Source: an uncultured Candidatus Saccharibacteria bacterium
GTDB lineage: Bacteria > Patescibacteriota > Saccharimonadia > CAILAD01 > BJGX01
Assembly: GCA_964610335.1 (NCBI GenBank)
Contig: CAZSVP010000002.1
Location: forward strand, 14,376 to 78,375
Length of the DNA stretch: 64,000 nucleotides
Direction of reading: 5' to 3'
The first letter of the stretch is position 1. Every line of letters begins with the position of its first letter. Made by a program: the position numbers and the translations under genes. Positions 3,088 to 35,247 of this stretch are shown in pieces. The notes below the pieces were generated by a model. That model had not been told where the DNA came from. It made no database searches and saw nothing but the letters and a program-made list of their open reading frames with translations.

Positions 3088-3190
3088 ATAGTACTTATGC
3101 TACCATATTTTGGCTTGAAAGTGCTGGTGATCTAAGCTATACTTGCCCGGATCGATCTGATCAACGTACCTCGACCCATCGGAGGCACTC

Positions 3191-3439: not shown

Positions 3440-3452
3440 GAGGCGGTCAATC

Positions 3453-15794: not shown

Positions 15795-15885
15795 TTATTT
15801 TGCTCTTCCAATTACTTGGCTATAGTGTAGCAAAAAAGAGAATAAATGCCAAACAAAGTGCAAAAGCTTTGATACGACACTTACT

Positions 15886-17916
15886 TTAGATAATATCCAC
15901 TACTGTTCGAATGCCAATTCTTTCATCTGCACCATTATTAAAAACCTCAAACTTAGCAGACCTTTCACGAGTACTCCAATAGGCTACTGGCGTTCGGCCG
16001 TCCGATAATTGCGTGCCAGCTAATCGACACATTTTACCTGTTCCACGCCAATTATCAATAACTTGATGATCAGCTTCTAACCTTGTCAGCGCAAGTATCA
16101 ACCACTCCTCAGGAGTAATCATGTTCTCCCATTCATACTCAGTAGTGTTCAAAGCAGACTTATACGAATCTAGCCTCTTTCCTGCCGGTAGCTGAGTGCG
16201 CCCATAAAGTGTACGTGCCGTAGCATCTGTTGGTATATCGACTAGGTCTTCAACCAATACAACACGCCATGGTCGAGCCACGCTTTCACTACGTTTTCCT
16301 ACAAGATGTGGTAGATATTGAAAAGTGAGATCCGCTTCAGTGGAGCCCAAGGCGGTCATGTTTACTCCAACTGGTCCCACCGACATTGGTGAGCCAGCTG
16401 AGTCTTTTAGCACAGCAGGAATCTGTGTCAGTCGATCACTATATTTGGATGCAATTCTTGCAAGTGGCATGCCAAATGGCACGATCAACATCTCAGTAAA
16501 ACCCTGGTTAATCTTGGTCTCAAACTCTGGCAGATTAGCTTCTATAGCTAAGGCAATCTCTTCTTTTGATGGCATTACTACGCGATTACCATTCACATCT
16601 TCAAAATCACGCATTAAACCAATTAGACCACTACTCTTTAGAAGAGCTAGCTGAGCTTCGTAGCTTTTCAGAAAATCAATTTTACGCAGTTGCTCTTGAG
16701 TTTCTGTTGAAACTGGCAACATTGAAATTTCTGGGTCCACTCCACCTATGGGCCGACGGCGTTTGTTGGGATCTGGTGTGTATTGTACTAGACTCAGCAG
16801 ATTCTCAAGTTTGGTACGATCCTCATCACTTTCTACCTTGCCTAAGTAATAATAGCGAAGCGCTCTTTGAGCGGTTTCAGTAATGTCGCCGTTATAGAAG
16901 CGGGCTATAAAATTGGTAAAACGCCGTTGTTCTTCATCATCATTATACTCGAAAGGCTGTGGCTGACCGCTTGCTATGTCGCGTTCCGATAGGAGCTTCT
17001 GAGCAGACTGGTGGAACTCTGTATACCGGCTTAGGATCTCCACAATTCCAGGAATTTCGGCCAACTGTTCGGGGGTAAGTACATCTTCACGACTCTCATG
17101 CTTAACAAGTTTAGGTATATCTAGCTCTGAGCCAATACCAAACCGAGCTTTGAGACGAATATCAAATGTTTCTTGGGGCAAGTTGGAGGGTCCCTTCATA
17201 TACACCCAGCGGCGCAATTGAGCAGGATCGAGCGGCTCTCGCCCAAAGAAACCAGCGCCAGGCGGATTGGTAAGGGCAATAAGTTTGGTTTTTGATTTAT
17301 CCGCCTCAACCATCTCACCGGCATCTTCTGAAAGTGTAACTGTCCCGCCATGCTCCAAGGCATCCAGAACTTCGTGCATACGAATATTCACCTCTGGACG
17401 AGCAGCGTTATATTCGTCAAGAATTATAACTTTGACCTTACCTTCTTCCTGCATAAGGCCTCGCGTGACTGGCCCAGGAACAAATACAAACTCTGGATCA
17501 GACTTAGTTCTTTTGTTTGGGTTTGGCAAATAACGTCCCATCATAGCCTCAGGATCCGAGAGACCATTGAGATTGACATAGTGTACTTCCCAGCCAAGCT
17601 CAGCACACATTTTTTTGATAGTGGTAGACTTACCAACACTTGTGCCAGCTTCTATTAACATCGGATCGCCAGATTGCAGACATACCGCAATATCACGCTG
17701 AAACTCCAGGCTAAACTCACTCTCTATAAAGTGTTCGTCGTATATCTGACGTCTTGGTGTAGCATCGCCAGGGTTGGCTTTGGGGAGTCGGACCCCCAAA
17801 TAGGTAACATCTTCTGCTGTTTCTACTATTGCAGCCTTAGGCGTCTTCAGCTCAGCTTTTTTGGCCCGCAATCGATCACCAAGGCCTACATCTGGTACGG
17901 GCTCAGCCATGAGCAA
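15886..17916 (-). CDS. AAA_5 (MoxR/dynein-related) ATPase with ~400 aa C-terminal extension of unknown function
   Basis: Walker A GTSVGKST, Walker B VIILDEYN, sensor LIALTNP; 676 aa, about twice the size of canonical MoxR. Confidence 0.7.
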   Translation of the reverse strand: MLMAEPVPDVGLGDRLRAKKAELKTPKAAIVETAEDVTYLGVRLPKANPGDATPRRQIYDEHFIESEFSLEFQRDIAVCLQSGDPMLIEAGTSVGKSTTIKKMCAELGWEVHYVNLNGLSDPEAMMGRYLPNPNKRTKSDPEFVFVPGPVTRGLMQEEGKVKVIILDEYNAARPEVNIRMHEVLDALEHGGTVTLSEDAGEMVEADKSKTKLIALTNPPGAGFFGREPLDPAQLRRWVYMKGPSNLPQETFDIRLKARFGIGSELDIPKLVKHESREDVLTPEQLAEIPGIVEILSRYTEFHQSAQKLLSERDIASGQPQPFEYNDDEEQRRFTNFIARFYNGDITETAQRALRYYYLGKVESDEDRTKLENLLSLVQYTPDPNKRRRPIGGVDPEISMLPVSTETQEQLRKIDFLKSYEAQLALLKSSGLIGLMRDFEDVNGNRVVMPSKEEIALAIEANLPEFETKINQGFTEMLIVPFGMPLARIASKYSDRLTQIPAVLKDSAGSPMSVGPVGVNMTALGSTEADLTFQYLPHLVGKRSESVARPWRVVLVEDLVDIPTDATARTLYGRTQLPAGKRLDSYKSALNTTEYEWENMITPEEWLILALTRLEADHQVIDNWRGTGKMCRLAGTQLSDGRTPVAYWSTRERSAKFEVFNNGADERIGIRTVVDII

Positions 17917-18343
17917 GCTCCTTTACTCCCAATCTAATTGTCATGCCTAGCTTGCTAAGCCAATCGTATTCACTCTGCCAGGTGTTGAGCTGATCAGTTG
18001 TAAGTATCATGATTAATCTATGTTCGCTCAGATCACGGGTGGTTTGTCTGGTTTGTAGTGTAAGCTGGTCCACCAACTCGATACTACCAGTCTGGTACTG
18101 GCATACGAAGTCGTAGAGCTGTTTGCGATCATTTTGCTCAAGTATACTTGGCTCTATAGTAATACGACGATGTACATCAAGCGTGTGCCAAAGTGATCCT
18201 ATCGAGCGAACTGTAGCAAAACGCTGGGTAGCTAGATAGCCAATAACTTCAAGGCGCTGGGCCTCAGTGCCACACACTATCAAACCTACCTCGGTACTAC
18301 CGCCCAAATATTCTACAAACTGGTCAACTTCTGGGATTTGCAT
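17903..18343 (-). CDS. Hypothetical protein (146 aa) between VWA and AAA genes, overlapping both
   Basis: ORF overlaps AAA gene start by 14 nt; no known motif. Confidence 0.45.
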   Translation of the reverse strand: MQIPEVDQFVEYLGGSTEVGLIVCGTEAQRLEVIGYLATQRFATVRSIGSLWHTLDVHRRITIEPSILEQNDRKQLYDFVCQYQTGSIELVDQLTLQTRQTTRDLSEHRLIMILTTDQLNTWQSEYDWLSKLGMTIRLGVKELAHG

Positions 18344-18365
18344 AAGAATTATTGCTCATTATACC

Positions 18366-20456
18366 TCAAAATGTTTGCGGACGCTCGATCACATCACGCA
18401 AGACATCGGCGATAGTCTCGGCCATTTGTTCAATTGATACATCAGCTAAGCTGTTTGGATAATACCTTGCAACATGTTCAGTATATGGCCCAATACCAAG
18501 TCCTAGTATTTTTTGATTAGTAGATGAAGTAATGGTCTGTACTACTGTTTTCAAATCGTATTCTGCTCCTCCATGAATAGTGGATGGTGCTGGCTCGCCG
18601 TCTGAAAGCACAATTAAGAATTTTTCGGATTGTCGCTGACGGTCCAACCGCTCTGAAGCTTGTTGGATTGCCCATCCATCGTCGTTCCAGCTTGCATGGT
18701 AGCTTCGCACTTCATCAAGCATCTCACCAAGTGACTCTTGTTGACTTTTTTCTATGCGTCGACCGAACGGCTTAAATTCATGAAGTACTTCATTGAATCC
18801 TAAGATCTCCATATTTATACCGAGTCGGTTTAGTACTTCGGCGAGTACTACCACCGCCTTAAAGGTTTCGTTAATTTTTGCACCATTCATTGAGCCTGAC
18901 AAATCAACGAGTAGTGAGATAGCGTAGTCCTTCTCACTTGGCAGCTCGCGACGTTCCCAAGAGCGTGATTCGACAGCACTGATACCCTGAGCTTTTTCTT
19001 GCATACGTTTGCTAATATTGATCCGCCGTCCGGTATTATACCCTGTTGTATAGCGGTGTTGGCTGCGTGCCACAAAGATAGCCCGCAAGTCTTGCTCTAA
19101 ACTGTTGATGATTGGAGCAAGATCATGACGAATCTCCTCGTAAGCATTCTGACCTTCATATATGCCCTCCAGAGCTGACTTGAAATCTGTCATTACCGGA
19201 GACGGTTCGGGCGGCCTTACAGGTGAAGTTGGCGGTTCATCTGGGGTATCATTGAGGGATGGTGTTGCTGCTACTGGTAGCTCGGGCGCATCTACTGGTT
19301 CTGGAAGATCTGGTAATGGCGTAGAATCATCTTGTGAATCACCCACCCAACTACCGAGCTTGTCGGCTAACTCGCCGGCTAAATCTTCGAGTTCCTTGGC
19401 AGCCTGTTCGCGAGCAGCTTGTTTTTGCTCATCAGTTAATTCTGGCGGCGACTCTGGAGATTTGGGCTGATTTGATCCTGGTGCAGGAGTAGGGGGTTGT
19501 TCAGGTTCATTTGGCTCGCCTGTGTCTGATGATCCCTCGGGGGGAGATGGCATGTCCAGTCCAGACCCACCAGCTTCCTCATCCATATTTTGCTGCATTT
19601 GTTCTTGTAGTTGTTCAGCCCGATCTTCTACATCAGCTTCGTAGAGCGGTAGCAGATGCGGCCAGATCTGTTCTTCCATGATTCTGAGACTCAGTTCCGA
19701 GTATTTCATAATCTCGTCTTCACCACTATCAGCCTCAGCGCGGGAAGGATAAGTCCACCAGGCCTCTTGCGCTGCATCCAAACAAGCGTCCACTGCCTCA
19801 CGTACATCGTCTGGCAAGCCTTCACTAAGCTCCATTTCCTTCTCAGCCTCATCGCGACTCCACTGCTTGATCAGCTCAAAACCCGCCTGTACAAACCGTG
19901 GGGTTTGACGATCACCACTCTTCTCCTTGGCCCACTGCTCGATCTGCATATCTTGCTGATAAGCATAAACCATATCACCACGCATGGCTGGATAACTATC
20001 AGCCAAAAAGTTGTTAACTCGAGGATCTTCAACACAATTGACCATAAACATAAAGCCTGGCTGTTGGATTGTCTCTTTCATAGACTCAGGGATCCGAGTA
20101 ATCCGCCGGTGTGAGCCTTCGTGTGCTATCACAAATTTGAGGTAAGAATCCTCCTTCTCAAGTAAGTCTACTGGATCAGCAAATATCTCATTATCGCGAA
20201 AATTCCAGTACCAGCCCGCGCCTGGTTTGCTAGCCTTTACTGGAATTTTAAAATCCTTACCAATAAACTTGGCAATGGCTGACAACTCGCGCAACTTACG
20301 TTTGACCTGTTTTCTCTGCTTTTTATCGAGTTCGATAGCCTTGGCTTCAGTCGCCTCGGCATCAATTGGCTCTGAAGTAGGCCCAACACTTTCAGTAGGA
20401 GCCGACTCCGGATCAGGATTATCAGCGACGTTATACAAACGCTCTTGTTCTGGCAT
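18366..20456 (-). CDS. VWA-domain protein with N-terminal HExxH metallopeptidase-like domain (DUF2201-like) and ~200 aa acidic Pro/Glu-rich linker
   Basis: VIAHEGSHRR (HExxH); MIDAS DLSGSM...; T ... SDGEP in C-terminal VWA; low-complexity PEPS-rich middle. Confidence 0.7.
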   Translation of the reverse strand: MPEQERLYNVADNPDPESAPTESVGPTSEPIDAEATEAKAIELDKKQRKQVKRKLRELSAIAKFIGKDFKIPVKASKPGAGWYWNFRDNEIFADPVDLLEKEDSYLKFVIAHEGSHRRITRIPESMKETIQQPGFMFMVNCVEDPRVNNFLADSYPAMRGDMVYAYQQDMQIEQWAKEKSGDRQTPRFVQAGFELIKQWSRDEAEKEMELSEGLPDDVREAVDACLDAAQEAWWTYPSRAEADSGEDEIMKYSELSLRIMEEQIWPHLLPLYEADVEDRAEQLQEQMQQNMDEEAGGSGLDMPSPPEGSSDTGEPNEPEQPPTPAPGSNQPKSPESPPELTDEQKQAAREQAAKELEDLAGELADKLGSWVGDSQDDSTPLPDLPEPVDAPELPVAATPSLNDTPDEPPTSPVRPPEPSPVMTDFKSALEGIYEGQNAYEEIRHDLAPIINSLEQDLRAIFVARSQHRYTTGYNTGRRINISKRMQEKAQGISAVESRSWERRELPSEKDYAISLLVDLSGSMNGAKINETFKAVVVLAEVLNRLGINMEILGFNEVLHEFKPFGRRIEKSQQESLGEMLDEVRSYHASWNDDGWAIQQASERLDRQRQSEKFLIVLSDGEPAPSTIHGGAEYDLKTVVQTITSSTNQKILGLGIGPYTEHVARYYPNSLADVSIEQMAETIADVLRDVIERPQTF

Positions 20457-20549
20457 AAAACTATCATACCAAACTCAGTATGGGAGACATAACTGGAATC
20501 AAAAATGACCCGCATAGCGGGCCATTTTTTGTACAAGCAAACTAGTTGC

Positions 20550-21014
20550 TTATTGGAGTTCTACAGTAGCACCAGCTTCTTCAAGCTTCTTCTGAGCTTC
20601 CTCGGCTTCTTCTTTCTTCACTTTTTCTTTTACCATCTTAGGAGCACCATCTACTAGGGCTTTGCTTTCAGCAAGTCCAAGCCCGGTGATCTCGCGTACG
20701 GCCTTGATCACGTCGATCTTCTTCTCACCAGCACCGGCTAGGAAGATGTTGTATTCACTCTTCTCTTCGGCGGCTTCGGCAGCTTCGCCGCCACCACCAA
20801 CTGCAGCCACAGCCACAGGAGCAGCAGCGCTTACACCAAAGTGATCTTCCAGTACTTTAACTAGCTCAGCAAGATCAAGTACGCTTAGTTTTTCAATCTC
20901 ACTTACCAAGTCTTTGAACTTGGCAGGAACTTCTTTTTTCTCTTCGGTCTTCTCGGCAGTAGCCTCAGCTACTTCTTCTTTTACTTCTTCTGGTTTTGTA
21001 GTTTCTTCAGCCAT
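20550..21014 (-). CDS. rplL: 50S ribosomal protein L7/L12 with ~30 aa acidic N-terminal extension
   Basis: Conserved CTD ...[27 protein letters not shown]... Confidence 0.9.
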
Positions 21015-21017
21015 GAT

Positions 21018-21548
21018 TTAAGCATCTCCTTTGGACTCACCGATGGCATTGAGCGCATACAGTAGTCCGGTTATATTTCCATTCAATACTCGTACAAATC
21101 CACTTAATGGTGCAGCAATTGTGCCGACCAGAGTAGCGGTAAGTTGCTCGCGACTTGGTAGCTTGGCGAGGGCGGCTACTTGCTCTGTGGTTAGTATGGT
21201 GCCAGCCTCATCAATAGCACCGACTATTTCTAGTGCGTCGTGAGATTTAGCAAACTCATATACCAACTTGGCAGTAGATGCCTCGTCATCACCAAAGGCG
21301 ATTGCCATAGGTCCTTCAAACAAGCTCATATCTAAGTCCTTGAGCTTGGTTTGGCTGAGCGCAACTCGTACGAGAGTGTTTTTTGCTACCTTGTAGCTAA
21401 CGCCTGCTTCACGCAATTTGGCACGTAACTCGGTGACGCTCGCGACATTGAGTCCACGATAGTCAGTAAGCACGGCAATCTTGCTAGTCGAAAAGGCATC
21501 GGCCAAAGCAGCTACATCTTGCTCTTTCTGAGAGCGTGATTTTGCCAT
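21018..21548 (-). CDS. rplJ: 50S ribosomal protein L10
   Basis: Start ATG 21548 (MAKSRSQ) with GGAGTG SD; track ORF extends further upstream in frame. Confidence 0.9.
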   Translation of the reverse strand: MAKSRSQKEQDVAALADAFSTSKIAVLTDYRGLNVASVTELRAKLREAGVSYKVAKNTLVRVALSQTKLKDLDMSLFEGPMAIAFGDDEASTAKLVYEFAKSHDALEIVGAIDEAGTILTTEQVAALAKLPSREQLTATLVGTIAAPLSGFVRVLNGNITGLLYALNAIGESKGDA

Positions 21549-21748
21549 ATACACTCCGTTATGGTTAGTTAATGTTCTGTAATTACCAAACAAAAAATCT
21601 TTGGAATTCTCCAAAGACCTCGTGTCCAACAATCATTTGATTGTCACCTCATGTAGCAAATTAAGTCGTTTGACTGCTACAGTCTTTGGTAATTGAGCAT
21701 ATTCTAACAGATTGCCACCTGGTTAGTCAATAGTTAGCATAACGAACT

Positions 21749-21780
21749 CGGGAGGAGACTACCGAAATAGTCTCCTCCCG
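21749..21780. promoter_or_regulatory. Perfect 13 bp-stem hairpin CGGGAGGAGACTA-CCGAAA-TAGTCTCCTCCCG in rplJ leader / 3' of inserted small gene
   Basis: Seen directly; lies between stop of small high-GC ORF and rplJ. Confidence 0.45.
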
Positions 21781-21808
21781 CATTGTCAGCCAGGCATCAT
21801 CTCAACGC

Positions 21809-22126
21809 CTAGCCGACTCGTTCCTTCCGCCGCCGAGGCCCATCGACATCCACCATCTCCCACTCGCCGTCTTCGAAGTTGAAGCGAACGATCTGGTTGT
21901 GGAGCGGTGCTGGCCCTCGATACGCGATCATTGGCCGGCTGCCCAACGGTCGTCCCACACCACCACAGCCCTTCTCAGGACAGAACAGATGGTGAACGAT
22001 CTCGCCGCCCTTGCGACCTGTCAGTGTCACTGGCGACCCCCACAGCTTTGTCTCATGGCCAGTCTGATCTGGGCACACGAGATATCGCAACATGTGAGTC
22101 TGCGGCACGTTCTTACGATGAGGCAT
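21809..22126 (-). CDS. Small high-GC protein (105 aa), possible zinc-binding (CP...H..., HH..CPEKGCGG)
   Basis: ATG 22126 with GGGAGGA SD; ~62% GC island. Confidence 0.45.
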   Translation of the reverse strand: MPHRKNVPQTHMLRYLVCPDQTGHETKLWGSPVTLTGRKGGEIVHHLFCPEKGCGGVGRPLGSRPMIAYRGPAPLHNQIVRFNFEDGEWEMVDVDGPRRRKERVG

Positions 22127-22261
22127 AGTCCTCCCTTGGACGCTATACTGATAGAAACAAAAAAGACCACAGTGAAGCCACTTGGTATTCACTTTTGGTC
22201 CCCGCCACCTAGTAGATGGATCTAGAGTATATCAATGATTATCAGATCGGTCAAGATAGGA

Positions 22262-22888
22262 TTAATACAATTCTACTGGCAATTCCCAGCCTGAAGTATC
22301 TAGCTGTGTTAGATCTATCTTAATATCTATCTCAGTAGGAAGCTCATTGTCCACACCCACTGCTTCTTCCAAATCTCCCTCAACATTTAGCAAATAATGG
22401 CGTCGAGCTCTCTCCAGTGATTGTATGGCTTGATCAGTACCCATTGGTAATACAAATGGTTTGCCATCCCTGTTTAATACTCGATGCTGGTAGTCATACA
22501 TACGAATTAGCTCTTCGGGGATAATCTTGCGCAATATGCGCATACTGTGGTCGTTGGCTATTGCAGCCACCATATCTGTTGCTCCTTGAGATTTTGCGAA
22601 AGCGATCCCTGCTTTGAGTAATCTCTCGCCTATACCACTGTTTCGCAAAGCAGGGTTGACCTTCAACATACCAGGATTGTATGCACGCCTACCATCTTTT
22701 TCGTGCTCGATCCACCCTTCAAGCGTGTTGCTTGCCGGTAGCCGTAGTGATACCAACTCAAAATATTTGGTCTTTTCAGTTTCAACCTGTGGACTTGCAG
22801 TCCTTACGAGCTCAAGTGTTTTGGGAACACTATCTATATCAGACTTGCTTGAATCACCTTTGGTTTCGGTTGGTTTAGGCTCGATCAT
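22262..22888 (-). CDS. GNAT family acetyltransferase with C-terminal extension
   Basis: NPALRNSGIGERLL acetyl-CoA binding motif; overlaps glyA stop. Confidence 0.55.
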   Translation of the reverse strand: MIEPKPTETKGDSSKSDIDSVPKTLELVRTASPQVETEKTKYFELVSLRLPASNTLEGWIEHEKDGRRAYNPGMLKVNPALRNSGIGERLLKAGIAFAKSQGATDMVAAIANDHSMRILRKIIPEELIRMYDYQHRVLNRDGKPFVLPMGTDQAIQSLERARRHYLLNVEGDLEEAVGVDNELPTEIDIKIDLTQLDTSGWELPVELY

Positions 22889-24125
22889 AATACCATTGGA
22901 GTGACTTGGCTATTTCGCTTAGCTGGGACGAAGAATTATAGTTAGAGCTCAGCACGATATTGGCCACAGCGTTTCCAAGCTGTTTGGATTGGTCTGCATC
23001 TAGGCCTCGGCTAGTAAGTGCAGCTGTGCCAAGCCGCAAACCGCCTGGCCTCCAGGGTGATTTAGTATCCTCAGGTATAGCATTGCGGTTAGTAATAACA
23101 CCAAGTGATTCAAGTTTGTTTTGCACTTCCAGGCTGTCTACTTCATCTGGTAGTTTGACGAGTGTAAGATGGGTTTCGGTTGACGACACTATGTCTAACC
23201 CACCCTCTACTAAGCCTTGTTCCAGTGCCCGACAGTTGGCTATTACTTGTTTTGAGTATTCTTGAAAAGATCGATTGTCGGGGTAAGTATCTTCACCCAA
23301 CACTTCTAGCAAGGCTTGGCCTGTAGCCGCGATTTGATTGAGATGTGGCCCACCCGAGGTACCTGGAAATACAGTTTGATTGAGCGACTTGAGATACTCT
23401 TGTTTGGCAAATACCATAGCAGCTCGCGGACCTCGCAAAGTTTTGTGGGTTGTAGTGGTAACAAAGTCTGCTCCTTGGGCGTGAGATTTAAAAGGACTGT
23501 CGTGTAACCCAGCTGCAATTAACCCCGCTATGTGAGCAATATCAGCCAGTACCAAGCAGCCATAGCTGTGAGCGATCTCACATAGTTTGGCAAATTCATA
23601 CTTGCGCGGATAAGCTGAAAAGCCAATTACTACCAAACGCGGCTGAGTAGTTTTTACCTTATCTTCAAAATCATCGTAGCCAATTTCATAGCCATTTGGC
23701 CCAGCTGCTACTGAGTAAGTATCGTGTTTGAAGAACTTCAAGTAACTACTAGTGGCATGCAAATGGCTCAAGTGCCCACCGCTACTCAGCTCTAGGCTTA
23801 ACACTGTGTCACCGGGCTCTAAGACCGTGAAGTACACCATGGCATTGGCCGGACTACCAGAAAGCACTTGCACATTGACGCCATACTCAGCCGTCTTATC
23901 AAATACTTCCAAAGCTTTTTGTTGCACAAACTCTTCGAGCTCATCGGTATGTACATTGCCAGCATAGTAGCGCTTGCCCGGGTAGCCCTCGGCATACTTG
24001 GTACTCCAAACCGAGCCAAGCAGACCGAGCACCTGTGGGCTAGGATAGTTTTCGGAAGCAATGAGATTGAGGCTGTCGCGCTGCCGAGCGAATTCTTTGG
24101 CAGTAAGATCTTCAATGAAATTCAT
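22875..24125 (-). CDS. glyA: Serine hydroxymethyltransferase
   Basis: PLP-Lys motif TTTTHKTLRGPR, 416 aa. Confidence 0.92.
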   Translation of the reverse strand: MNFIEDLTAKEFARQRDSLNLIASENYPSPQVLGLLGSVWSTKYAEGYPGKRYYAGNVHTDELEEFVQQKALEVFDKTAEYGVNVQVLSGSPANAMVYFTVLEPGDTVLSLELSSGGHLSHLHATSSYLKFFKHDTYSVAAGPNGYEIGYDDFEDKVKTTQPRLVVIGFSAYPRKYEFAKLCEIAHSYGCLVLADIAHIAGLIAAGLHDSPFKSHAQGADFVTTTTHKTLRGPRAAMVFAKQEYLKSLNQTVFPGTSGGPHLNQIAATGQALLEVLGEDTYPDNRSFQEYSKQVIANCRALEQGLVEGGLDIVSSTETHLTLVKLPDEVDSLEVQNKLESLGVITNRNAIPEDTKSPWRPGGLRLGTAALTSRGLDADQSKQLGNAVANIVLSSNYNSSSQLSEIAKSLQWYYDRA

Positions 24126-24150
24126 ATGGATAATTATACATCATAACGAG

Positions 24151-24186
24151 AGTGAGCCCGAGGGATGGTAGTCCCTCGGGCTCACT
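24151..24186 (-). terminator. 15 bp perfect GC-rich stem-loop AGTGAGCCCGAGGGA-TGGTAG-TCCCTCGGGCTCACT downstream of thyX
   Basis: Seen directly; weak U-run so could be stabiliser/processing hairpin rather than terminator. Confidence 0.4.
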
Positions 24187-24294
24187 TGAGACAGGCTGCG
24201 GCGAAAAGCCTATCTCGGGTCACACCCTCGAGTACTAGGACCCGAGGATGTGTCTGAGGTGGTCTGACAGGGCGAAGGCCAGTACACCTCAGGA

Positions 24295-26094
24295 TCAGGC
24301 CGTCAGTTCCGCCAACTTGGCCAACTTCTCGGCCGTGGCGGTCTCGCTGGCCATGCGTGTCAGCTCGCCGAGCGTGTCCTGCTGGTTCACGAAGCACATC
24401 GCCTTGGCACTGATCGGATAGACACTCTGCACCTCATCGAACATGAGGTTGCACAGCTTGCGGTAGCCAGGATGGCCTTGCGGTCCGGTGCGCAATTCCA
24501 GCAAGTGGAACAGCTCACGCAGACTGGTGATGAACCGGTAGCGCATGCGATAGCCCATGCACAAGGCGTACTGAGCCTCGTGCTTGTGACCGCCGCCGAA
24601 CATGTCGTTGTACAGCTCACTGGACAACTCGAAGGCTCGACGGTAGTTGGCCTCTTGCCCGGCCTCCGCCACCAACTCCGGTACCTCGTAGCCGAGATAC
24701 GGCGTGAGCGCCGGCCACTCCCACGCACTCACCATGCGATGTCGCTGCAGGTCGCGGAAGGTGCCGTAGTCGCCAACCAGCTCCCAGTCGAAGGTGGCCT
24801 CCTCGGCAGCTCGCCCCGGCCGATGGCGCCGGTTGAGGCGCTGGCCGAAGTAGAGCTGCATGAGCTGACGCTGCTTCTTGCGCGGCAGCTTGGCGACCAA
24901 CTTGCGCAGCTTGGTCATGGAGCGACCATCCACGGCGTAGAGCATGCCAGCGCACAGCTCGCGTTCGTCGCGCGGCTGGTAGTTCAGCAATGTCACCGCC
25001 GCTTCGCCCTTCTTGCTCGACTTGTCTGGCGGCAGCTCACGGAGAGCGAACTCACGCAGGCCAGCGCGGGTCTCGGCCAAGTAGTTGACGGTCATGAGCC
25101 CACGGTCCGGCTTGTCGGTCCGCTCCAGGAACTCTGGGATCACCTTGCGAGCCTCACGCAACAGCGCGGCACCCATGGCCCGGGCCTCGGGCAGCTCACG
25201 CGACAACAGCCGCATGATCAGCGCATCGAGTGCCTGAGCCGACATGGTGATGCCCACAGTCGAACGGGTTCCGACTGGCAGGATGGCGCGGGCGGCATCG
25301 CAGGCCTGAGCTCGCACCGCTCCCGGCCAGCCAGCATGCTTGGCCGGCTCCGTCGTCTTGTCCGGCCGCGGGTTGGTGAGCTTGACGTGCTCGGTGACCT
25401 CGCGCACTACCGTGGAGTAGAGATCGAAAATCTCGTCCATGGTGGACTCGTAGTACTTGAGCATGTCGGGGTCGAGCCCCGGCCGCAGGTACTTGTAGCG
25501 ACCATCAGTCTTGGTGTCGAAGTAGATGTAACGGGTGGACTGCTCGAGATACGCCGCAGCCACCCGACCCCACTCCAACTCCTTGGTCATGAGATTGCTC
25601 ACACCTTCGCAGACGAACATCACTGTGATGAGCTGCTGCACCGAATCGTCACCGAACTCGGTAACCACACGATTGATCAGCGCCGCCGCCTCTTCGGTTC
25701 GCATGCGCCCGGCGGTGAGGTCGGTGATGGCCTGGCGAAGCGTCTTCAACGCCTGTTCACACATCGGCGTGGCATCGAAGTCACCGTCGAAGAAGTTCTC
25801 CAGCGAACGAACAGCAGAAAGCAGCTCATGCTTGCGCAGTTTGGTGAGCACGGCAGCGTCCTGCACGCCAGCGAACTCCTCGAGGATGGTGACACGCAGA
25901 TCACCATCGCGTCGGCTGAGCCGAGCCATGGCAGCGGCCACCACCACGATGTTGGCCTGAGCGGTGAAGAAGTAGACCGGCCCAGTCGGATCGGTCACGA
26001 TCTCGCTCAGGTAGCGGATGCCGCGCTTTGTCGGCACCTTCTGTCCCTTGTAGATCCGGATGTACGGGTTTCTCTCTTGCAGTTTGGCGGGCAT
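24295..26094 (-). CDS. thyX: Flavin-dependent thymidylate synthase ThyX-like (Thy1 family), long ~600 aa form
   Basis: FVCEGVSNLMTKELEWGRVAAAYLEQSTRYI aligns to ThyX FxxEGVSRxxTHELVRHRxASYxxQSQRY core; second RHR (LQRHRMVS) later; ~63% GC. Confidence 0.6.
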   Translation of the reverse strand: MPAKLQERNPYIRIYKGQKVPTKRGIRYLSEIVTDPTGPVYFFTAQANIVVVAAAMARLSRRDGDLRVTILEEFAGVQDAAVLTKLRKHELLSAVRSLENFFDGDFDATPMCEQALKTLRQAITDLTAGRMRTEEAAALINRVVTEFGDDSVQQLITVMFVCEGVSNLMTKELEWGRVAAAYLEQSTRYIYFDTKTDGRYKYLRPGLDPDMLKYYESTMDEIFDLYSTVVREVTEHVKLTNPRPDKTTEPAKHAGWPGAVRAQACDAARAILPVGTRSTVGITMSAQALDALIMRLLSRELPEARAMGAALLREARKVIPEFLERTDKPDRGLMTVNYLAETRAGLREFALRELPPDKSSKKGEAAVTLLNYQPRDERELCAGMLYAVDGRSMTKLRKLVAKLPRKKQRQLMQLYFGQRLNRRHRPGRAAEEATFDWELVGDYGTFRDLQRHRMVSAWEWPALTPYLGYEVPELVAEAGQEANYRRAFELSSELYNDMFGGGHKHEAQYALCMGYRMRYRFITSLRELFHLLELRTGPQGHPGYRKLCNLMFDEVQSVYPISAKAMCFVNQQDTLGELTRMASETATAEKLAKLAELTA

Positions 26095-26117
26095 GCACCT
26101 CTCCTTTTGTTTTTGCC

Positions 26118-26387
26118 CTATTGGGGGCGCGGTTGGTCTCGATACACCGCATCGATTGCGGCATCGACTTCTGTTTGCACCTGCTCAAAGGCTGGTCGGA
26201 GCAAGTGATCGATCAGTTTCTCGCGAAACGTGGCCATATCACCTTCCTCCAACACTACCTCGACCTCAGGCTTGTGATGCGGGTGGCCGGTGTCGCGTGT
26301 AAGCATGCGTGTAGCACGCCGATACGCTTGCCACTTGCCACTCGCTTGGTCGTAACGGATATTCAGATCCAGAATAGGCGCACTCAC
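26118..26387 (-). CDS. Hypothetical protein (89 aa) between tmk and thyX
   Basis: High-GC ORF, same strand, fills gap in operon. Confidence 0.35.
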   Translation of the reverse strand: MSAPILDLNIRYDQASGKWQAYRRATRMLTRDTGHPHHKPEVEVVLEEGDMATFREKLIDHLLRPAFEQVQTEVDAAIDAVYRDQPRPQ

Positions 26388-26398
26388 GCTGCCCCCTT

Positions 26399-27034
26399 TC
26401 AGGCAAGCAAAGGCTCAATATGAGCCAAGATGGATCGTTCGACTTCTTCCACACTGCCGCGACCATCGATGAACACGAATTGGCCAGGCAACCCCTTGGT
26501 AGCCTCGACACGGAAGCCCTCGACGAGTCTAGTATGGAATTCTTCTTTCTCCTGCTCGAAACGGTCGAGCTCGCCGCCTCGTGCGCTGACACGAGCCATC
26601 GAATCAGCAAGGTCGACATCCAGCACAAAGATGCGATGAGGGAACAACTCGTTTACCACCAAGCTGCAGACTGAGCGCACATAGTCGGCGCCGAGCCCAC
26701 GGGCATGGCCTTGGTAGACACAGTTGCTGACATAGCTGCGATCGGAGACCACTGGTCGTCCTGATTGCAGCGCTGGCAACACCACCTCGTGCAGATGCTG
26801 AACGCGATCGGCATTGAACAACAGCACTTCGGCCATGGGCTCGAGTTCGCCGGTAGCTGGATCGAGCAAGATCTGTCGAACCATACCGCCAAGCGGTGTG
26901 CCACCTGGCTCACGAGTCAGCACAGCGCCAATTCGATCGGCGAGGAGTCGGGCTTGCGTGGACTTGCCACAACCCTCGACACCCTCGAATGCAATGTAGA
27001 GCGGTTGGGGCACAGCCCTCACCTCCTTTGTCAA
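26399..27034 (-). CDS. tmk: Thymidylate kinase
   Basis: LYIAFEGVEGCGKSTQ P-loop, DRY-like motif; ~63% GC. Confidence 0.85.
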   Translation of the reverse strand: MTKEVRAVPQPLYIAFEGVEGCGKSTQARLLADRIGAVLTREPGGTPLGGMVRQILLDPATGELEPMAEVLLFNADRVQHLHEVVLPALQSGRPVVSDRSYVSNCVYQGHARGLGADYVRSVCSLVVNELFPHRIFVLDVDLADSMARVSARGGELDRFEQEKEEFHTRLVEGFRVEATKGLPGQFVFIDGRGSVEEVERSILAHIEPLLA

Positions 27035-27118
27035 AGGTCGGAAACTTTCCGCCTCTAAGTCAGGATTAAGTATAGAGTACTAGACAACAAGTAAAAAGTG
27101 TAAGTAGTAATAAATACT

Positions 27119-27928
27119 CTAGAATATCTGTCGTTTGTCGCGCGACATTTTCTTGCGCAAGCTTGTATTGCCACTCGAGTACATACGAGGCAACATGCCA
27201 ACTGGACTCCAGGCTTTTTGTAGCTTGCGAATATCTACACCCGGTTGGTAATGACCGGTGGTACCATAATCGATAGTAGTGGCGGCCACCCAGAAGAATA
27301 TCATCTGCGCGATCGGCATACCCACCACAAGAGGAACCCAGACGTTGGTATTTTTGTTGCGAATCTCCATGGTCCAACGATTGATGTAGCCCACATCGCC
27401 CCAACCAGCGTCGTCGCAAGAGCTAATGTTGATGCGCCCCAGGCTACTGCGAGCTTTCATCATGGTGGTGATGCCATAGCTACCTCCTATGTACTCAAGT
27501 GTATGAGCCAGAATACATTCGCCTGGTGCCAGCACTATAATATATTCGTCCTTGTCGATGCCTGCAAATGATTGTCGACTATGTTGTTTGCACCATGTTT
27601 CATGAGTGACGGCCTTATGGGGGCCTGAATAATACAAATCTACCTCTTCTTTGCTATATGGCGAAAAGTCTACACGATGCCCGACTTGCTCAGCCATATA
27701 ATAGTTACCACCCAATCGCACATCGTAGCTGCTAGAGTTGAGAAGCTCGGGCTCAAATGGATCTATTACAACTTGTCCACTATTGAGACAAGCTGTAAGC
27801 TCAGCATCTCCAAGCACGCCAGAAAATGGTCTGTTGGATTTACGCTGATAAACTTCAACATCAGCTAGATCGAAATCTACAGCTGTTGTGCGTCCTTTTA
27901 ACCACTCTTCTGGACTTTGTTGTTTCAC
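27119..27928 (-). CDS. dcd: dCTP deaminase family protein (dUTPase fold), long form
   Basis: LNSSSYDVRLG motif; 269 aa; backbone-like GC. Confidence 0.65.
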   Translation of the reverse strand: MKQQSPEEWLKGRTTAVDFDLADVEVYQRKSNRPFSGVLGDAELTACLNSGQVVIDPFEPELLNSSSYDVRLGGNYYMAEQVGHRVDFSPYSKEEVDLYYSGPHKAVTHETWCKQHSRQSFAGIDKDEYIIVLAPGECILAHTLEYIGGSYGITTMMKARSSLGRINISSCDDAGWGDVGYINRWTMEIRNKNTNVWVPLVVGMPIAQMIFFWVAATTIDYGTTGHYQPGVDIRKLQKAWSPVGMLPRMYSSGNTSLRKKMSRDKRQIF

Positions 27929-27987
27929 ATTACCTCCAATTTATTTCCTAGACTAACAGACAATCTAGACAAACCCAAGCTTAACTA

Positions 27988-28015
27988 AAATGATCCACCT
28001 TGTGGCGGATCATTT
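27988..28015 (-). terminator. Hairpin AAATGATCCACC-TTGT-GGCGGATCATTT downstream of rplA
   Basis: 12 bp stem with one mismatch, U-rich tail on minus strand. Confidence 0.45.
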
Positions 28016-28034
28016 ACAGAAGAGTTAAGTGCAA

Positions 28035-29045
28035 TTACTCTTTGGCTTCTTTTTGAGCAGCGTTGACATCAAGTTTGATAGATGGGCTCATAGTAGCACT
28101 CACAAACATACTGCGTACAAATACACCCTTTACTCCAGCCGGCTTGGCTTGGTTGAGACCAGCTACTACTGCCTTGAGATTGCTTAGCAAGTCTGCCGGT
28201 TTGAAGCTGAGCTTACCAAATCCAACATGCACTATACCATTGGCATCGGCTCGTAGTTCAGCTTGACCCTTCTTGATTTCTTCGACGGCTGCTGCAGGAT
28301 TGGCAGTAACAGTATTGTTCTTGGGCGATGGCATAAGTCCCTTGGGACCCAAAACCTTAGCATATCGGCCTAGCTCAGCCATTTTAGCAGGTGTTGCTAC
28401 TAGTACATCAAAGTCAAACTTTTCTTTGCCAAGTGCAGCGAGCAAATCTTCTGAGTTGGTAATGTCAGCACCAGCCTTCTTGGCGGCTGCTGCATCTTTG
28501 TCGTCGGCAAGTACGGCTACACGAACAGATTTGCCGGTACCAGCTGGCAAGGCCACGCTACTACGGACTTGTTGATCGGCCTGTTTGGGATCGATATTGC
28601 ATGCCACATGTAGCTCGGCCGTGGCATCAAAATTGACCTTGGAAAGCTTGGGTAAGAGTTCTACTGCTTCAGCCAATGTATATAGCTTGTCTGGCTCTAT
28701 AAGTTCACGCACCTCTTTTTGATTCTTGGAATACTTCTTAACACGCGGTTTTTGGATAACCTTTGGTTTTTCGGTCTCTTCTACTGCCTTAGATTTGGTG
28801 TCAGCCTTGCGATTTTCCTTGGCTTCAGCTTCAGCTGCTTCTTCTTGGGCTTTCTTACTACGTTTGCCTGCCTTAGTAGTTGCAGCCTTGGTAGTTTTCT
28901 CTTCAGCAACTACTTCGTCAGCGACCTTCGCTGGTTTCTTAGTATTCTTTTCTTCAGCCACAACAGGCTCTTTAGCCTTTTTAGTAACTTTCTTATCATC
29001 GGTCTTCTTAGTATCTGTCATTTGATTTGCTCCTTTCGTGGTCAA
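28035..29045 (-). CDS. rplA: 50S ribosomal protein L1 with ~105 aa Lys/Glu/Ala-rich N-terminal extension
   Basis: Conserved L1 core from ...KLYTLAEAVELL onward. Confidence 0.9.
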   Translation of the reverse strand: MTTKGANQMTDTKKTDDKKVTKKAKEPVVAEEKNTKKPAKVADEVVAEEKTTKAATTKAGKRSKKAQEEAAEAEAKENRKADTKSKAVEETEKPKVIQKPRVKKYSKNQKEVRELIEPDKLYTLAEAVELLPKLSKVNFDATAELHVACNIDPKQADQQVRSSVALPAGTGKSVRVAVLADDKDAAAAKKAGADITNSEDLLAALGKEKFDFDVLVATPAKMAELGRYAKVLGPKGLMPSPKNNTVTANPAAAVEEIKKGQAELRADANGIVHVGFGKLSFKPADLLSNLKAVVAGLNQAKPAGVKGVFVRSMFVSATMSPSIKLDVNAAQKEAKE

Positions 29046-29087
29046 GCATGCGCTCTCAAGCGCACTCCCACAGCTAGGTTAATTGTG

Positions 29088-29540
29088 TTACGACTTCGCA
29101 GCGACTTTTTTTGGTTGCTCGGTTTCTACTCCCATACTGCGAGCAGTACCGGCTATGATTTTCTTAGCAGCCTCAATGTCATTGGCATTGAGGTCAGCCA
29201 TCTTGGCTTCAGCAATCTCAGTTAGCTGAGCATCTGTGAGTTTACCAACTTTGTCTTTGTTGGGCACACCGCTACCACTTTTGAGCTTGAGAGCTTCCTT
29301 GATCATGGTTTTTGCAGGAGTACCCTTAACTACAAAACTCATAGACTTGTCTTCGTAGATGGTTACCACTACTGGAGTGGGTTGTCCCTTACGATCTTGA
29401 GTTTGTTCATTGAAAGGATTAATGAAATCCATCATGTTCACACCATGCTGGCCAAGGTTGGACCCAACAGGAGGAGCTGGGGTAGCACCGCCACCCATCA
29501 ATATCATTTTCACTTTTCCGATAACTTTTTTTGCTGCCAT
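29088..29540 (-). CDS. rplK: 50S ribosomal protein L11
   Basis: MAAKKVIGKVKM...PPVGSNLGQHGVN. Confidence 0.92.
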   Translation of the reverse strand: MAAKKVIGKVKMILMGGGATPAPPVGSNLGQHGVNMMDFINPFNEQTQDRKGQPTPVVVTIYEDKSMSFVVKGTPAKTMIKEALKLKSGSGVPNKDKVGKLTDAQLTEIAEAKMADLNANDIEAAKKIIAGTARSMGVETEQPKKVAAKS

Positions 29541-29550
29541 AATATACTCC

Positions 29551-30090
29551 TTAAACTTTCTTCACCTGAAGACCATCGAGCTCCACTGGTGTTTCACGAC
29601 CAAACATACTGACAAGTACCTTGATCTTACCTTTTTGCTCATCTACTTCAGATATAGTGCCATCAAAGCCTTTAAACGGACCGTCGGTAATATTGACAAG
29701 CTCGCCCACAGAATAGTCAATCTTAAACTTAGGCTCTTCTACACCCATACGTTTTTGAATGGCTTTGACCTCGTTTTCACTGAGCGGTGATGGCGTAGTG
29801 CCAGAACCTACAAAGCCAGTGACATTGGGAGTGTTCCGGACCATAAACCAGCTGTCTTCGGTAATCGACATATGCACCATGATATAGCCAGGGAAGATCT
29901 TGCGTTCAACAGTACGACGTCGGCCATTCTTGATCTCAATTTGTTTTTCTTTTGGCACGATCACATCAAATACTTTGTCGGCCATATCCATTGACTCAGT
30001 TCGTTGACGGATTGCCTCTGCTACTTGGTCTTCGTAGCCGGAATAGGTATGGATTACATACCACGCTTGTTCTCCAGTTTGTTTGTTCAT
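29551..30090 (-). CDS. nusG: Transcription antitermination factor NusG
   Basis: [14 protein letters not shown] domain, KOW domain. Confidence 0.9.
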
Positions 30091-30096
30091 GTGGCT

Positions 30097-30288
30097 CTAT
30101 TGCCCTTTTTTAATTAACGCTTGTAAACCTGCGCGCAAAATAGCGTCGAGACCTGATAGATATATACCAATCACGATTGAAACTACTACCACAACAATCG
30201 CCAAGGTTATGGCCTGTCGCCTAGTCGGCCATATTACCTTTTTGAGCTCAGCAATTGAGCCTTGTATGTAAGTGGTAACGCGTTGCAT
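30097..30288 (-). CDS. secE: Preprotein translocase SecE (minimal 1-TM form)
   Basis: 63 aa, single TM, position upstream of nusG. Confidence 0.8.
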   Translation of the reverse strand: MQRVTTYIQGSIAELKKVIWPTRRQAITLAIVVVVVSIVIGIYLSGLDAILRAGLQALIKKGQ

Positions 30289-31496: not shown

Positions 31497-32345
31497 TCAC
31501 CTTCCGAATAGTTTTGCTAGATGACAGCCAAGCAATATCCAGGCTTTTTCAGGCCCGCTCAAACTCACCCTAGACTTGGAAATTTGCTGCGGTGTTAACT
31601 GAGCCAGTTTGGCTAGTAATCTCATATAGGCACGCATGGCCAAAAGAACACCGTAACGAACACTTTTGGGTAGTTGATCTACCCCGAGCCTAGCCTGCTC
31701 AAAATCTACCTCAATCTCGTTGATTATTGCCATATAACCACCTTGGCTAAGATCTGTAAAATCTATGTTTGGGAAATATTGTCGAGACAATTCTTGCTGA
31801 TCACTACCAAGATCACGCAAGAAATTCACTTTTTGAAACGCTGCGCCTAATGCCTCAGCTGCTGATATAAGCTTCTGGTATTGGCTAGCTTTGCCGTCAC
31901 AGAAAACCGACAAGCACATCAAACCAACTGCCTGGGCTGAGCCATATATATAGTTGTCATATTCTGCTTTTGAGTAACTATGCTTTGAAATATCCATCCG
32001 CATACTGGCAAAAAAAGCCTCAATTGGCTCAATTTCAAGGTTGTACTTACGTGCAGTTGTCGAAAAGGCATGGACTATCAAGTTCTCGCTATATCCCGAC
32101 TTTATAGATTGCAGCGTCTCGGCTTCTAAGGTAGCAAGCCGTTTGGTCATCTTATCTGGCCGCCAACTATCAACCAGCTCATCGGCAATACGAACTAACC
32201 CATAGATGTTATATATATGGTTTCGGTATGGTTGATCTATCAATGTCGTAGCCCGGTAAAAAGAGCTCGAGAATTGACGAGTCACTAGCTCCGCTGCTGC
32301 GAAGCTCGTGTCAGTATATAACTGTTGGTTATAGCGAGTTTGCAT
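31497..32345 (-). CDS. crtB: Phytoene synthase
   Basis: YIYGSAQAVGLM and FQKVNFLRDLGSD squalene/phytoene synthase signatures. Confidence 0.8.
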   Translation of the reverse strand: MQTRYNQQLYTDTSFAAAELVTRQFSSSFYRATTLIDQPYRNHIYNIYGLVRIADELVDSWRPDKMTKRLATLEAETLQSIKSGYSENLIVHAFSTTARKYNLEIEPIEAFFASMRMDISKHSYSKAEYDNYIYGSAQAVGLMCLSVFCDGKASQYQKLISAAEALGAAFQKVNFLRDLGSDQQELSRQYFPNIDFTDLSQGGYMAIINEIEVDFEQARLGVDQLPKSVRYGVLLAMRAYMRLLAKLAQLTPQQISKSRVSLSGPEKAWILLGCHLAKLFGR

Positions 32346-34887: not shown

Positions 34888-34926
34888 ATTGCACTAATCA
34901 TATCAGATCGTTTAGTGTAGGGGTAG

Positions 34927-35247
34927 ATGAAGATTACTAACCTGATATATATTACTACTCTGGGTACAAGCTTAGTGTGCCTAGTACTAATTGATAAACG
35001 TTGGCGGCTAGCTATGTTTTACGATGCCAAAGCTAGCTTGTTTGCTATTGGAACTGTGGCACTACTACTACTAGGATTTGATGTTGCTGGAATTAGTTGG
35101 GGAATATTCTTCACAAATCAAGCTTACGTGAGCGGAATACACTTATTCTCAAAAAACTTACCTGTTGAAGAGATATTGCTGCTAGCCTTGATATGCTACA
35201 CCACACTTGTACTATATCAGTCGTTCAAGAGAGTATGGCATGAGTAA
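34927..35247 (+). CDS. Lycopene cyclase domain protein (heterodimeric cyclase subunit, CrtYc/CrtYe-like)
   Basis: 106 aa, 3 TM, LPVEEILL (PxEE) motif. Confidence 0.6.
   Translation: MKITNLIYITTLGTSLVCLVLIDKRWRLAMFYDAKASLFAIGTVALLLLGFDVAGISWGIFFTNQAYVSGIHLFSKNLPVEEILLLALICYTTLVLYQSFKRVWHE

Follow-up and report, generated by a model that had tools for sequence, protein, structure and literature searches.

Why should a run of thymidylate genes lying between two sets of ribosomal-protein genes be so much richer in GC than everything around it, and how did it come to be there? The question is raised by a 64,000-nt stretch of DNA (the window) from an uncultured Candidatus Saccharibacteria bacterium (assembly GCA_964610335.1, contig CAZSVP010000002.1, positions 14,376–78,375 of the forward strand). 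The gene order on the minus strand of the window is secE-nusG-rplK-rplA; then genes for a dCTP deaminase-like protein (dcd), thymidylate kinase (tmk), an 89-aa protein (orf89), a flavin-dependent thymidylate synthase (thyX), serine hydroxymethyltransferase (glyA), a GNAT-like protein and a small open reading frame (ORF); then an L10 leader followed by rplJ-rplL. The position of the thymidylate genes is ancestral in the Saccharibacteria, and their high GC is probably the result of replacement in place by DNA from an unsampled, GC-rich relative.

The GC content climbs from ca. 46% to 57–67% over ca. 24145–27013. In 150-bp windows it steps from 0.40 to 0.60 at ca. 27010 and from 0.59 to 0.46 at ca. 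24145. Both boundaries are abrupt and fall within intergenic spacers – the 5’ one in an AT-rich spacer between dcd and tmk (27014–27118, minus strand), the 3’ one downstream of thyX (24145–24294, minus strand), in a region that holds a perfect 15-bp inverted repeat (24151–24186). The GC content at third codon positions (GC3) has a median of 0.43 and a median absolute deviation of 0.035 over the 64 ORFs of the window, so that thyX (24295–26094, minus strand; GC 63%, GC3 0.82) is ca. 7 robust standard deviations out. The GC3 of tmk (26399–27013, minus strand; GC 58%) is 0.61, and that of orf89 (26118–26387, minus strand; GC 56%), which lies between them inside the block, is 0.59. The neighbouring genes have a native composition: dcd (27119–27928, minus strand) is 47% GC with a GC3 of 0.46, the GC3 of glyA (22875–24125, minus strand) is 0.44, and that of the ribosomal-protein genes adjoining the block is ca. 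0.4 (0.39–0.44 for secE, nusG, rplK and rplA, 28035–30288). A sequence-only reading of this DNA had proposed this content and order of genes between rplA and rplJ, a GC jump exactly over thyX, the ORF and tmk, native-like dcd and glyA, and replacement in place by high-GC DNA. The ORFs and their family matches bear out the gene content and order; the jump is real and sharp, though the block ends near 27013 and not at 27060; and a sharply bounded block between a native dcd and a native glyA is in agreement with the proposed replacement.

The anomaly is limited to one group of closely related strains. The GC3 of thyX exceeds that of the ribosomal-protein genes by +0.39 to +0.41 in the window and at two related loci, L001 and L002. 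The median excess over all 66 loci compared is +0.04, with values between −0.05 and +0.15 at the remaining 63. Among other members of the window’s family, L090 has no excess, L003 and L087 have ca. +0.15, and L088 and L089 ca. +0.12 to +0.15. No integrase or other mobility gene was found among the ORFs, there is no tRNA gene nearby, and a search for flanking direct repeats or att-like sites around the block gave nothing beyond short chance matches. Boundaries in intergenic spacers together with the lack of repeats, integrase and tRNA form the pattern expected of homologous replacement through conserved flanking genes. The spacer between dcd and tmk is also a recombination breakpoint between strains, as nucleotide identity between the window and L001 falls there, at ca. 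27010, from 0.94 to 0.6–0.7.

Since the sequences are metagenome assemblies, and conserved genes can give chimeric joins, a block of this kind might be produced by assembly or binning that joined reads of a high-GC organism at conserved genes. This is extremely improbable here. Independent assemblies from at least three samples, two of them being those of L001 and L002, all have the block in this position and with this GC jump. In L084, a further independent assembly (SRR14932608), the sequence matches that of the window with 100% identity from 24399 to 29013, a stretch that crosses the junction of dcd and tmk, and both junctions of L002 are spanned by one 42-kb contig. The boundaries are in non-conserved spacers, not in the conserved coding sequence where a chimeric join would be expected, and the divergence of the block between strains keeps step with the divergence of the strains themselves.

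Three other ORFs in the window also have a high GC3: a partial ABC exporter (1–1290, minus strand; 0.70), a 141-aa ORF without a family match (3161–3586, minus strand; 0.62), and an Acetyltransf_3 GNAT gene (4268–4933, plus strand; 0.64). The genome thus carries several GC-rich islets besides the thymidylate block.

The thymidylate genes had been taken for an insertion that interrupts the conserved rplK-rplA-rplJ-rplL order, but comparison with other genomes shows otherwise. An alignment of ThyX was scanned against one genome per bacterial species; the best matches were nearly all Saccharibacteria, and 76 Saccharibacteria loci were assessed. Of the 76 species genomes, 59 have thyX between rplA and rplJ, on the same strand as both. 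A contig end truncates ten further loci on one side, and only two long loci are clear exceptions. The distance from rplA to rplJ has a median of 6.1 kb, so the 6.5 kb of the window is typical, and dcd is upstream of thyX at most loci. Because so many species genomes share the position, the presence of thymidylate genes at this site is a conserved state, not the result of an insertion: the genes are conserved neighbours and not, as it is tempting to read them, intruders in a ribosomal operon. It had been allowed that relatives might have the same genes at the same GC in this position; the genes and the position are indeed shared, but the GC is not, the large excess being confined to the window, L001 and L002.

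The usual ThyX of the Saccharibacteria is a Tmk-ThyX fusion of ca. 770–800 aa (L005–L079; e.g., L009:9176–11599 and L013:9194–11557). The ThyX reading frame is longer than 700 aa at 69 of the 76 loci, an N-terminal Tmk domain is detectable in many of them, and independent gene calls annotate fusions of PF02223 and PF02511. In many genomes with the fusion, rplA is immediately followed by a second tmk-like gene that stands alone. In the family of the window tmk and thyX are separate. A glyA gene follows thyX only in this family (e.g., L002, L003, L087, L089 and L090); no glyA match was found beside thyX at the other Saccharibacteria loci scanned. The gene order extends further in L088, L089 and L090, which have carotenoid-like genes followed by secE-nusG-rplK-rplA-dcd-tmk-thyX-glyA-rplJ-rplL-dnaX-dnaB-GtrA-PMT, and synteny from the carotenoid-like genes to dnaX-dnaB is common to these three, L087 and L003. 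The placement of dcd-tmk-thyX between rplKA and rplJL is therefore the ancestral Saccharibacteria layout, to which the family of the window added glyA. The literature searched contained no description of the Tmk-ThyX fusion, or of dcd-(tmk)-thyX lying between rplKA and rplJL throughout the class. This arrangement would serve as a synteny marker for the Saccharibacteria.

Nor is the site the interior of a ribosomal-protein super-operon, as had been supposed. Upstream of rplJ there are a hairpin with a 14-bp stem (21780–21749), a promoter-like site (21730–21701; 10 of 12 matches, with TG) and then an L10 leader (21583–21707, minus strand), which matches Rfam RF00557 over its full model length (49.4 bits, gathering threshold 44). 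All three are nearly 100% conserved with L002. Since rplJ has a promoter-like site, a hairpin and a leader of its own, the site separates the rplKA unit from the rplJL unit. In E. coli these two units are separately regulated, and the recognisable L10 leader directly upstream of rplJ indicates that the same holds here. The window shares with operons of the E. coli rplKA/rplJL-rpoBC type the order secE-nusG-rplK-rplA ... rplJ-rplL as well as the leader. It differs in that the gap holds ca. 6.4 kb of nucleotide-metabolism genes, conserved across the Saccharibacteria, and in that no rpoB follows rplL within the part examined, where the window has a MoxR-like/VWA insertion and, beyond it, dnaX-dnaB. 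The gap between rplA and dcd has no terminator-like site comparable to that before rplJ, so the thymidylate genes could be co-transcribed, and possibly co-expressed, with rplKA.

If the position is old, the high GC of the block has to be explained by the history of its genes. The sequence-only reading expected ThyX to be nested among those of high-GC Actinobacteria or their phages. On such a view the thyX-tmk core would have been recently acquired from one of these sources – for instance, from the host of the epibiont. Cultivated Saccharibacteria live on Actinobacteria, and the GC3 of the block (0.6–0.8) is within the actinobacterial range. The ThyX of the window, though, is 45–58% identical to those of the Saccharibacteria and only 37–43% identical to those of the Actinomycetota. 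In a collection of 5.8 billion proteins its nearest relatives were the ThyX of L001 (92% identity), L002 (83%) and L003 (68%); the next group, at ca. 50%, includes L088, L089 and L090, which have the extended gene order of the window. In a neighbour-joining (NJ) tree of ThyX, the window group with L003 (100% bootstrap) is sister to L088/L089 (92%), followed by L090. These are part of a clade of 14 sequences (100%) that is apart from the main Saccharibacteria ThyX clade, and the ThyX of the Actinomycetota fall outside it. At the level of the family this agrees with an NJ tree of concatenated NusG, L11, L1, L10 and L7/L12, built from the family members with enough markers and 54 other Saccharibacteria, in which the window, L002, L087, L089 and L090 form a clade with 100% bootstrap support and the other 54 lie outside it. 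Judged by these comparisons, the ThyX of the window belongs to the ThyX lineage of its own family and is not an actinobacterial or phage gene. Scans of IMG/VR with ThyX and Tmk found no viral relatives and the PHROG matches were distant, at the level of protein families only, so a phage vector was also rejected.

The case of Tmk is different. All of the named top matches outside the family are Actinomycetota (Acidimicrobiales, Ilumatobacter) with 48–54% identity, while the Tmk of other Saccharibacteria are only 23–41% identical, so the actinobacterial affinity that had been predicted for Tmk does exist. It extends, though, to the whole family, whose Tmk resemble those of the Acidimicrobiia at 40–51% identity. 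The low-GC members L087, L089 and L090 have Tmk that are 40–46% identical to Acidimicrobiia-type proteins and 26–32% identical to other Saccharibacteria Tmk. The affinity is thus old and cannot explain the GC anomaly; judged by its sequence, Tmk may have been acquired long ago, at the base of the family, in an event not tied to the present GC. An identity of ca. 50% is also far too low for a recent donor. One member of the family, L087, has a ThyX whose nearest relatives among the sequences compared are those of Actinomycetota (40–43%), so that transfers of this kind at this site are possible. For the window, given the ancestral position of the module, the ThyX family clade and the lack of close relatives in IMG/VR, a recent insertion from Actinobacteria or phages is improbable, and such an origin for ThyX in particular is largely refuted.

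The two remaining genes associated with the block have almost no relatives. No Pfam, NCBIfam or PHROG family matches orf89. It is present in L001 (56% identity) and L002 (88%) and missing in L003 and L087–L090, where tmk adjoins thyX. In L002 there is an additional high-GC NUDIX gene of ca. 500 bp in the spacer between dcd and tmk, exactly at the boundary at ca. 27010. It has only four matches, of which three are close (73–93%), and two of these three are on contigs with the Tmk of the strain group.

Changes within the block since its arrival were examined with the substitutions unique to the window or to L001, polarised with L002 as the third sequence, in thyX and in 8.4 kb of its flanks. In thyX 92 of these changed GC to AT and 42 AT to GC, compared to 152 and 137 in the flanks (Fisher’s exact test, p = 0.002). 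The ratio in thyX, 2.19, is close to the 1.97 expected for a gene of 63% GC relaxing neutrally to 46% GC, and thyX changed at ca. twice the rate of its flanks. A bias toward AT at about the neutral expectation argues against GC-biased gene conversion or selection holding the GC up, and favours a foreign segment undergoing amelioration. The block is older than the split of the window, L001 and L002, whose flanks differ by 5–10%.

These substitutions bear on the possibility of a native origin without any transfer, in which the GC of the genes was raised locally, whether through GC-biased gene conversion at a hot spot of recombination or through selection acting on the transcript. The locus clearly recombines often, and the branch lengths of ThyX in the protein tree are not unusual, but a force raising GC would act in the opposite direction to the recent changes in the block. 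A small excess of GC3 in thyX is common in the Saccharibacteria (ca. +0.15 in L003 and L087), and in L092 and L085 thyX is a high-GC island at another locus (GC3 0.76–0.80 against ca. 0.52), but a shift of +0.4 is far above the effects of biased gene conversion reported in bacteria, and the GC steps abruptly at the intergenic boundaries with no taper. The neighbouring ribosomal-protein genes, which are highly expressed, have a GC3 of only ca. 0.4, so a high GC3 is not the preferred codon usage, and the orphan orf89 and NUDIX genes travel with the block. A local rise in GC is therefore unlikely.

Replacement in place, probably from an unsampled GC-rich relative, accounts best for these observations. 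A segment of ca. 2.9 kb containing tmk, orf89 and thyX, perhaps with the NUDIX gene, would have been replaced in the ancestor shared by the window, L001 and L002, by recombination through the conserved flanking genes, which would have imported the DNA of an unsampled, much more GC-rich organism. We infer both this mechanism and the identity of the donor, which for thyX would have been a member of the same Saccharibacteria family. Afterwards the block would have drifted toward the lower GC of the host, and later exchanges would have swapped the tmk-orf89 allele in L001, added or removed the NUDIX gene by strain, and exchanged the small ORF before the rplJ leader.

There is some evidence for a donor within the family. 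For NusG, L11, L1, a CrtI-like protein and GlyA, the window is about equally distant from L003, L087, L088 and L089. ThyX breaks this pattern, with 68% identity to L003 and ca. 50% to L088/L089. In addition, an insertion of ca. 50 aa in ThyX (residues ca. 85–135; 25690–25840), which varies in sequence and length among its carriers, is found only in the window, L001, L002, P0003 and L003. This unexpected closeness and the shared insertion hint at exchange within the family. Since the thyX of L003 is itself richer in GC than its neighbours, the insertion-bearing type of ThyX may have originated in a GC-rich lineage of the family and spread from there. A GC3 of ca. 0.7 does occur in Saccharibacteria among the loci (L005, L065 and L091), and L091 has a compositionally uniform tmk-thyX-whiB. 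The lineage of L085, L092 and L091, a candidate because of its high-GC thyX, was ruled out as the donor: its ThyX are ca. 55% identical to that of the window and branch outside the family group.

Several points weigh against replacement from such a relative. No donor was found among 5.8 billion proteins, in which nothing outside the strain group exceeded 68% identity for ThyX or 59% for Tmk, so a high-GC donor in the family is hypothetical. The other two genes do not lead to it either, as both orf89 and the NUDIX gene are orphans confined to the strain group; the single real homologue of orf89 in 1.84 billion representatives is the allele of the L001 type (56%). The excess of ca. +0.15 in the thyX of L003 and L087 means that part of the anomaly may belong to this gene region and not to one transfer. 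The closeness of ThyX to that of L003 could reflect a true sister relationship with a faster rate on the shared stem. The trees are neighbour-joining trees on corrected p-distances, which is a weak phylogenetic method, and the node joining Tmk to the Actinomycetota has a bootstrap of just 26%, so no claim of an actinobacterial origin of Tmk was rested on that tree. Finally, because the best outside matches of Tmk are Acidimicrobiia, tmk-orf89 could stem from a different kind of donor than thyX.

The locus is a mosaic in which recombination is ongoing. Between the window and L001 the flanks are ca. 93% identical in nucleotide sequence and thyX ca. 90%, but tmk-orf89 (27009–26033) only 50–70%, with 55% amino acid identity for Tmk. 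The tmk-orf89 alleles have been swapped, some strains have the NUDIX gene and others do not, and the small ORF is hypervariable. This small Cys/His-containing ORF (21809–22192, minus strand; more likely 21809–22126, 105 aa) has no family match and is itself high in GC (57%). Compared with L002 its DNA is 43–49% identical and its protein 28%, in the middle of flanks that are 90–99% identical. Its upstream region within 21809–22254 (minus strand) has a promoter-like site (22254–22226) and a leader with a hairpin and UUUUUU, followed by GGGAGG and the ATG at 22126. The promoter-like site, leader and start, as well as the rplJ leader downstream, are nearly identical in L002. Exchange as a cassette could explain this variability, as could rapid evolution of the gene downstream of a conserved attenuator-like leader.

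Other genomes have further variants of this kind. In L087 (9126–10919) the gene order is the same, but the 597-aa ThyX is 33% identical to that of the window and, among the sequences compared, nearest to ThyX from metagenome-assembled genomes of the Actinomycetota; its Dcd is also just 38% identical to that of the window. The L087 ThyX is a separate displacement at the same site. L003 (7429–9276) has a tandem pair of dcd-family genes, placed between rplA and tmk. The first has a GC3 of 0.74 compared to ca. 0.54 and is 49% identical to the Dcd of the window, and the second is 70% identical. In another lineage, that of L092 (9367–11629) and L085 (10001–11626), thyX is found elsewhere, with an ABC transporter on one side and a polysaccharide deacetylase on the other, and in the L092 island the adjacent orf159 has a GC3 of 0.81, against ca. 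0.52 for neighbouring genes.

The alleles of tmk-orf89, the NUDIX gene, the 105-aa ORF, the L087 ThyX, the duplicated dcd of L003 and the islands of L092 and L085 allow another reading, which we put forward only tentatively: that the gap between rplKA and rplJL in this family is a standing site of exchange, where genes of the thymidylate pathway and small orphan genes have repeatedly been replaced by divergent, often GC-rich versions under recurrent selection and not by a single neutral transfer. If so, the selection might come from inhibitors derived from the host or from phages, for example, or from conflicts over nucleotide pools in the epibiotic lifestyle.

That thymidylate synthase genes are replaced laterally is well known (PMC2826268), and their frequent transfer is a textbook example. 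Stern et al. (2010, PMC2826268) inferred more than ca. 20 non-orthologous ThyA/ThyX transfers and noted that xenologous displacements had been left out of the count. The GC block is a new example of known xenologous displacement and not a new mechanism or system. Like other displacements in situ, it has a gene of the same function at the same position, native flanks, and no mobility genes or repeats. Unlike them, the thyX copy appears to come from the same family, which is nearer to the replacement of a divergent allele than to a transfer between phyla, the donor is unsampled, and the site has undergone repeated later swaps (tmk-orf89 alleles, NUDIX, small ORF). The block is a well-bounded natural example of replacement in place with measurable amelioration, and the availability of several strains allows it to be dated.

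The genes of the module would make up a plausible route from dCTP through dUMP and dTMP to dTDP, as the sequence-only reading had proposed for the dUMP-to-dTDP part. The Dcd-like enzyme would yield dUMP (or dUTP) from dCTP. Its 269-aa product matches PF22769 with 96.4 bits (cut-off 27) and the equivalog TIGR02274 with 83.9 bits, under the cut-off of 92.8. The nearest solved chains are the dCTP deaminases of M. tuberculosis (2qxx/2qlp) and the bifunctional enzyme of M. jannaschii (1ogh). The similarity to these is just 22–48 bits, and the window’s protein is longer than their 190–204 aa, with an extra N-terminus of ca. 37 aa and internal insertions. The enzymes of both species are bifunctional dCTP deaminase/dUTPases, which give dUMP, the substrate of ThyX, directly (PMC5519681), and the protein of the window is possibly such a dUMP-forming enzyme. 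The two-domain ThyX would methylate dUMP to dTMP with methylenetetrahydrofolate (CH2-THF) and reduced flavin, releasing tetrahydrofolate (THF). In the chemistry of ThyX it is THF and not dihydrofolate that is regenerated, and thus no FolA is needed. Serine hydroxymethyltransferase would reload THF from serine to supply CH2-THF, and Tmk would convert dTMP to dTDP. In organisms with reduced genomes that depend on a host or on scavenged nucleotides, a compact route from dCTP to dTDP beside the translation genes is likely to be central to DNA synthesis.

The assignments of the other enzymes are of varying strength. Tmk (204 aa) matches TIGR00041 with 153.5 bits (cut-off 83.25) and PF02223 with 142.9 bits, and its translation shows the P-loop FEGVEGCGKST. 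Its start is the GTG at 27013, preceded by AAGGAGG, which agrees with the 204-aa P0121 called in other assemblies. GlyA (416 aa) matches NF000586 with 400 bits (cut-off 335) and PF00464 with 381 bits (cut-off 27). ThyX (599 aa) matches PF02511 (Thy1) in two stretches with 130.4 bits, compared to a cut-off of 24.8, but the equivalog TIGR02170 with 75.9 bits, under the cut-off of 87.9, as befits a divergent two-domain form. It has in common with the ThyX family the Thy1 match well above threshold and the linkage to dcd, tmk and glyA, and it contains an RHR and an (E/Q)xSxRY-like motif. It differs in that, in the window and its relatives, ThyX is one chain of ca. 540–600 aa with two Thy1-like halves and the motifs in different halves, and it is not fused to Tmk. 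In the alignment LEQSTRY is invariant at residues 183–189 in the N-terminal half and RHR at 451–453 in the C-terminal half; the N-terminal half has WGR in place of RHR, so that the signature RHR...S.RY is split between the two. No chain in the PDB matched ThyX, either with phmmer (E ≤ 0.001) or with a profile of 20 sequences (E ≤ 0.01), and the assignment as ThyX therefore rests on the Pfam match and the gene context.

The ORF that had been called a GNAT gene is present (22262–22888, minus strand; 208 aa), but its identity is borderline: it matches PF00583 with 21.7 bits compared to a cut-off of 20.7, over residues 77–117 alone, and phrog_1249, an acetyltransferase, weakly (E = 3.6e-4). It overlaps the end of glyA by 14 nt and has a native GC content. 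It is confined to the closest strains, being 90% identical in L002 and missing in more distant relatives. At the other end of glyA, the inverted repeat after thyX is followed on the minus strand by TGTATAAT, which ends 7 nt before the ATG of glyA. From its sequence the region 24125–24190 (minus strand) could hold a putative terminator and an extended −10 promoter, from which glyA would be transcribed as a leaderless mRNA.

The flanking genes, all on the minus strand, are secE (30097–30288), nusG (29551–30090) and rplK (29088–29540), identified from ORF calls, and rplA (28035–29021, with the longest ORF extending to 29045). The 336-aa ORF of L1 has an N-terminal extension of ca. 110–130 aa rich in Lys, Ala and Glu (28630–29021), and the Pfam Ribosomal_L1 domain covers residues 133–321. 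The extension is also found in relatives and varies in length, giving L1 proteins of 313–347 aa. On the other side are rplJ (21018–21548; 176 aa, Pfam Ribosomal_L10) and rplL (20550–21014; from the ORF call and gene lengths in relatives), both 99–100% identical to those of L002.

After rplL there is a segment of ca. 4.6 kb (15858–20500, minus strand) that is not in L002. It encodes a 676-aa AAA_5 (MoxR/dynein-like) ATPase (15889–17916), a 146-aa ORF (17903–18343), and a 696-aa protein (18366–20456) whose central part is rich in proline and which ends in a VWA/CobT_C domain. The segment appears to be a strain-specific insert made up of a MoxR-VWA pair.

Directly upstream of secE is a carotenoid-like cluster (31497–37532) that is kept across the family (also L088:1175–1823 and L089:345–969). 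It includes a phytoene/squalene synthase (31497–32345), a polyprenyl synthase (32348–33403), a phytoene-desaturase-like oxidase (33403–34887) and a divergent fusion of UbiA and a glycosyltransferase (35505–37532, plus strand); relatives also have small lycopene-cyclase subunits. The cluster resembles the actinobacterial clusters for C50 or glycosylated carotenoids, which is unexpected in a lineage of epibionts with reduced genomes.

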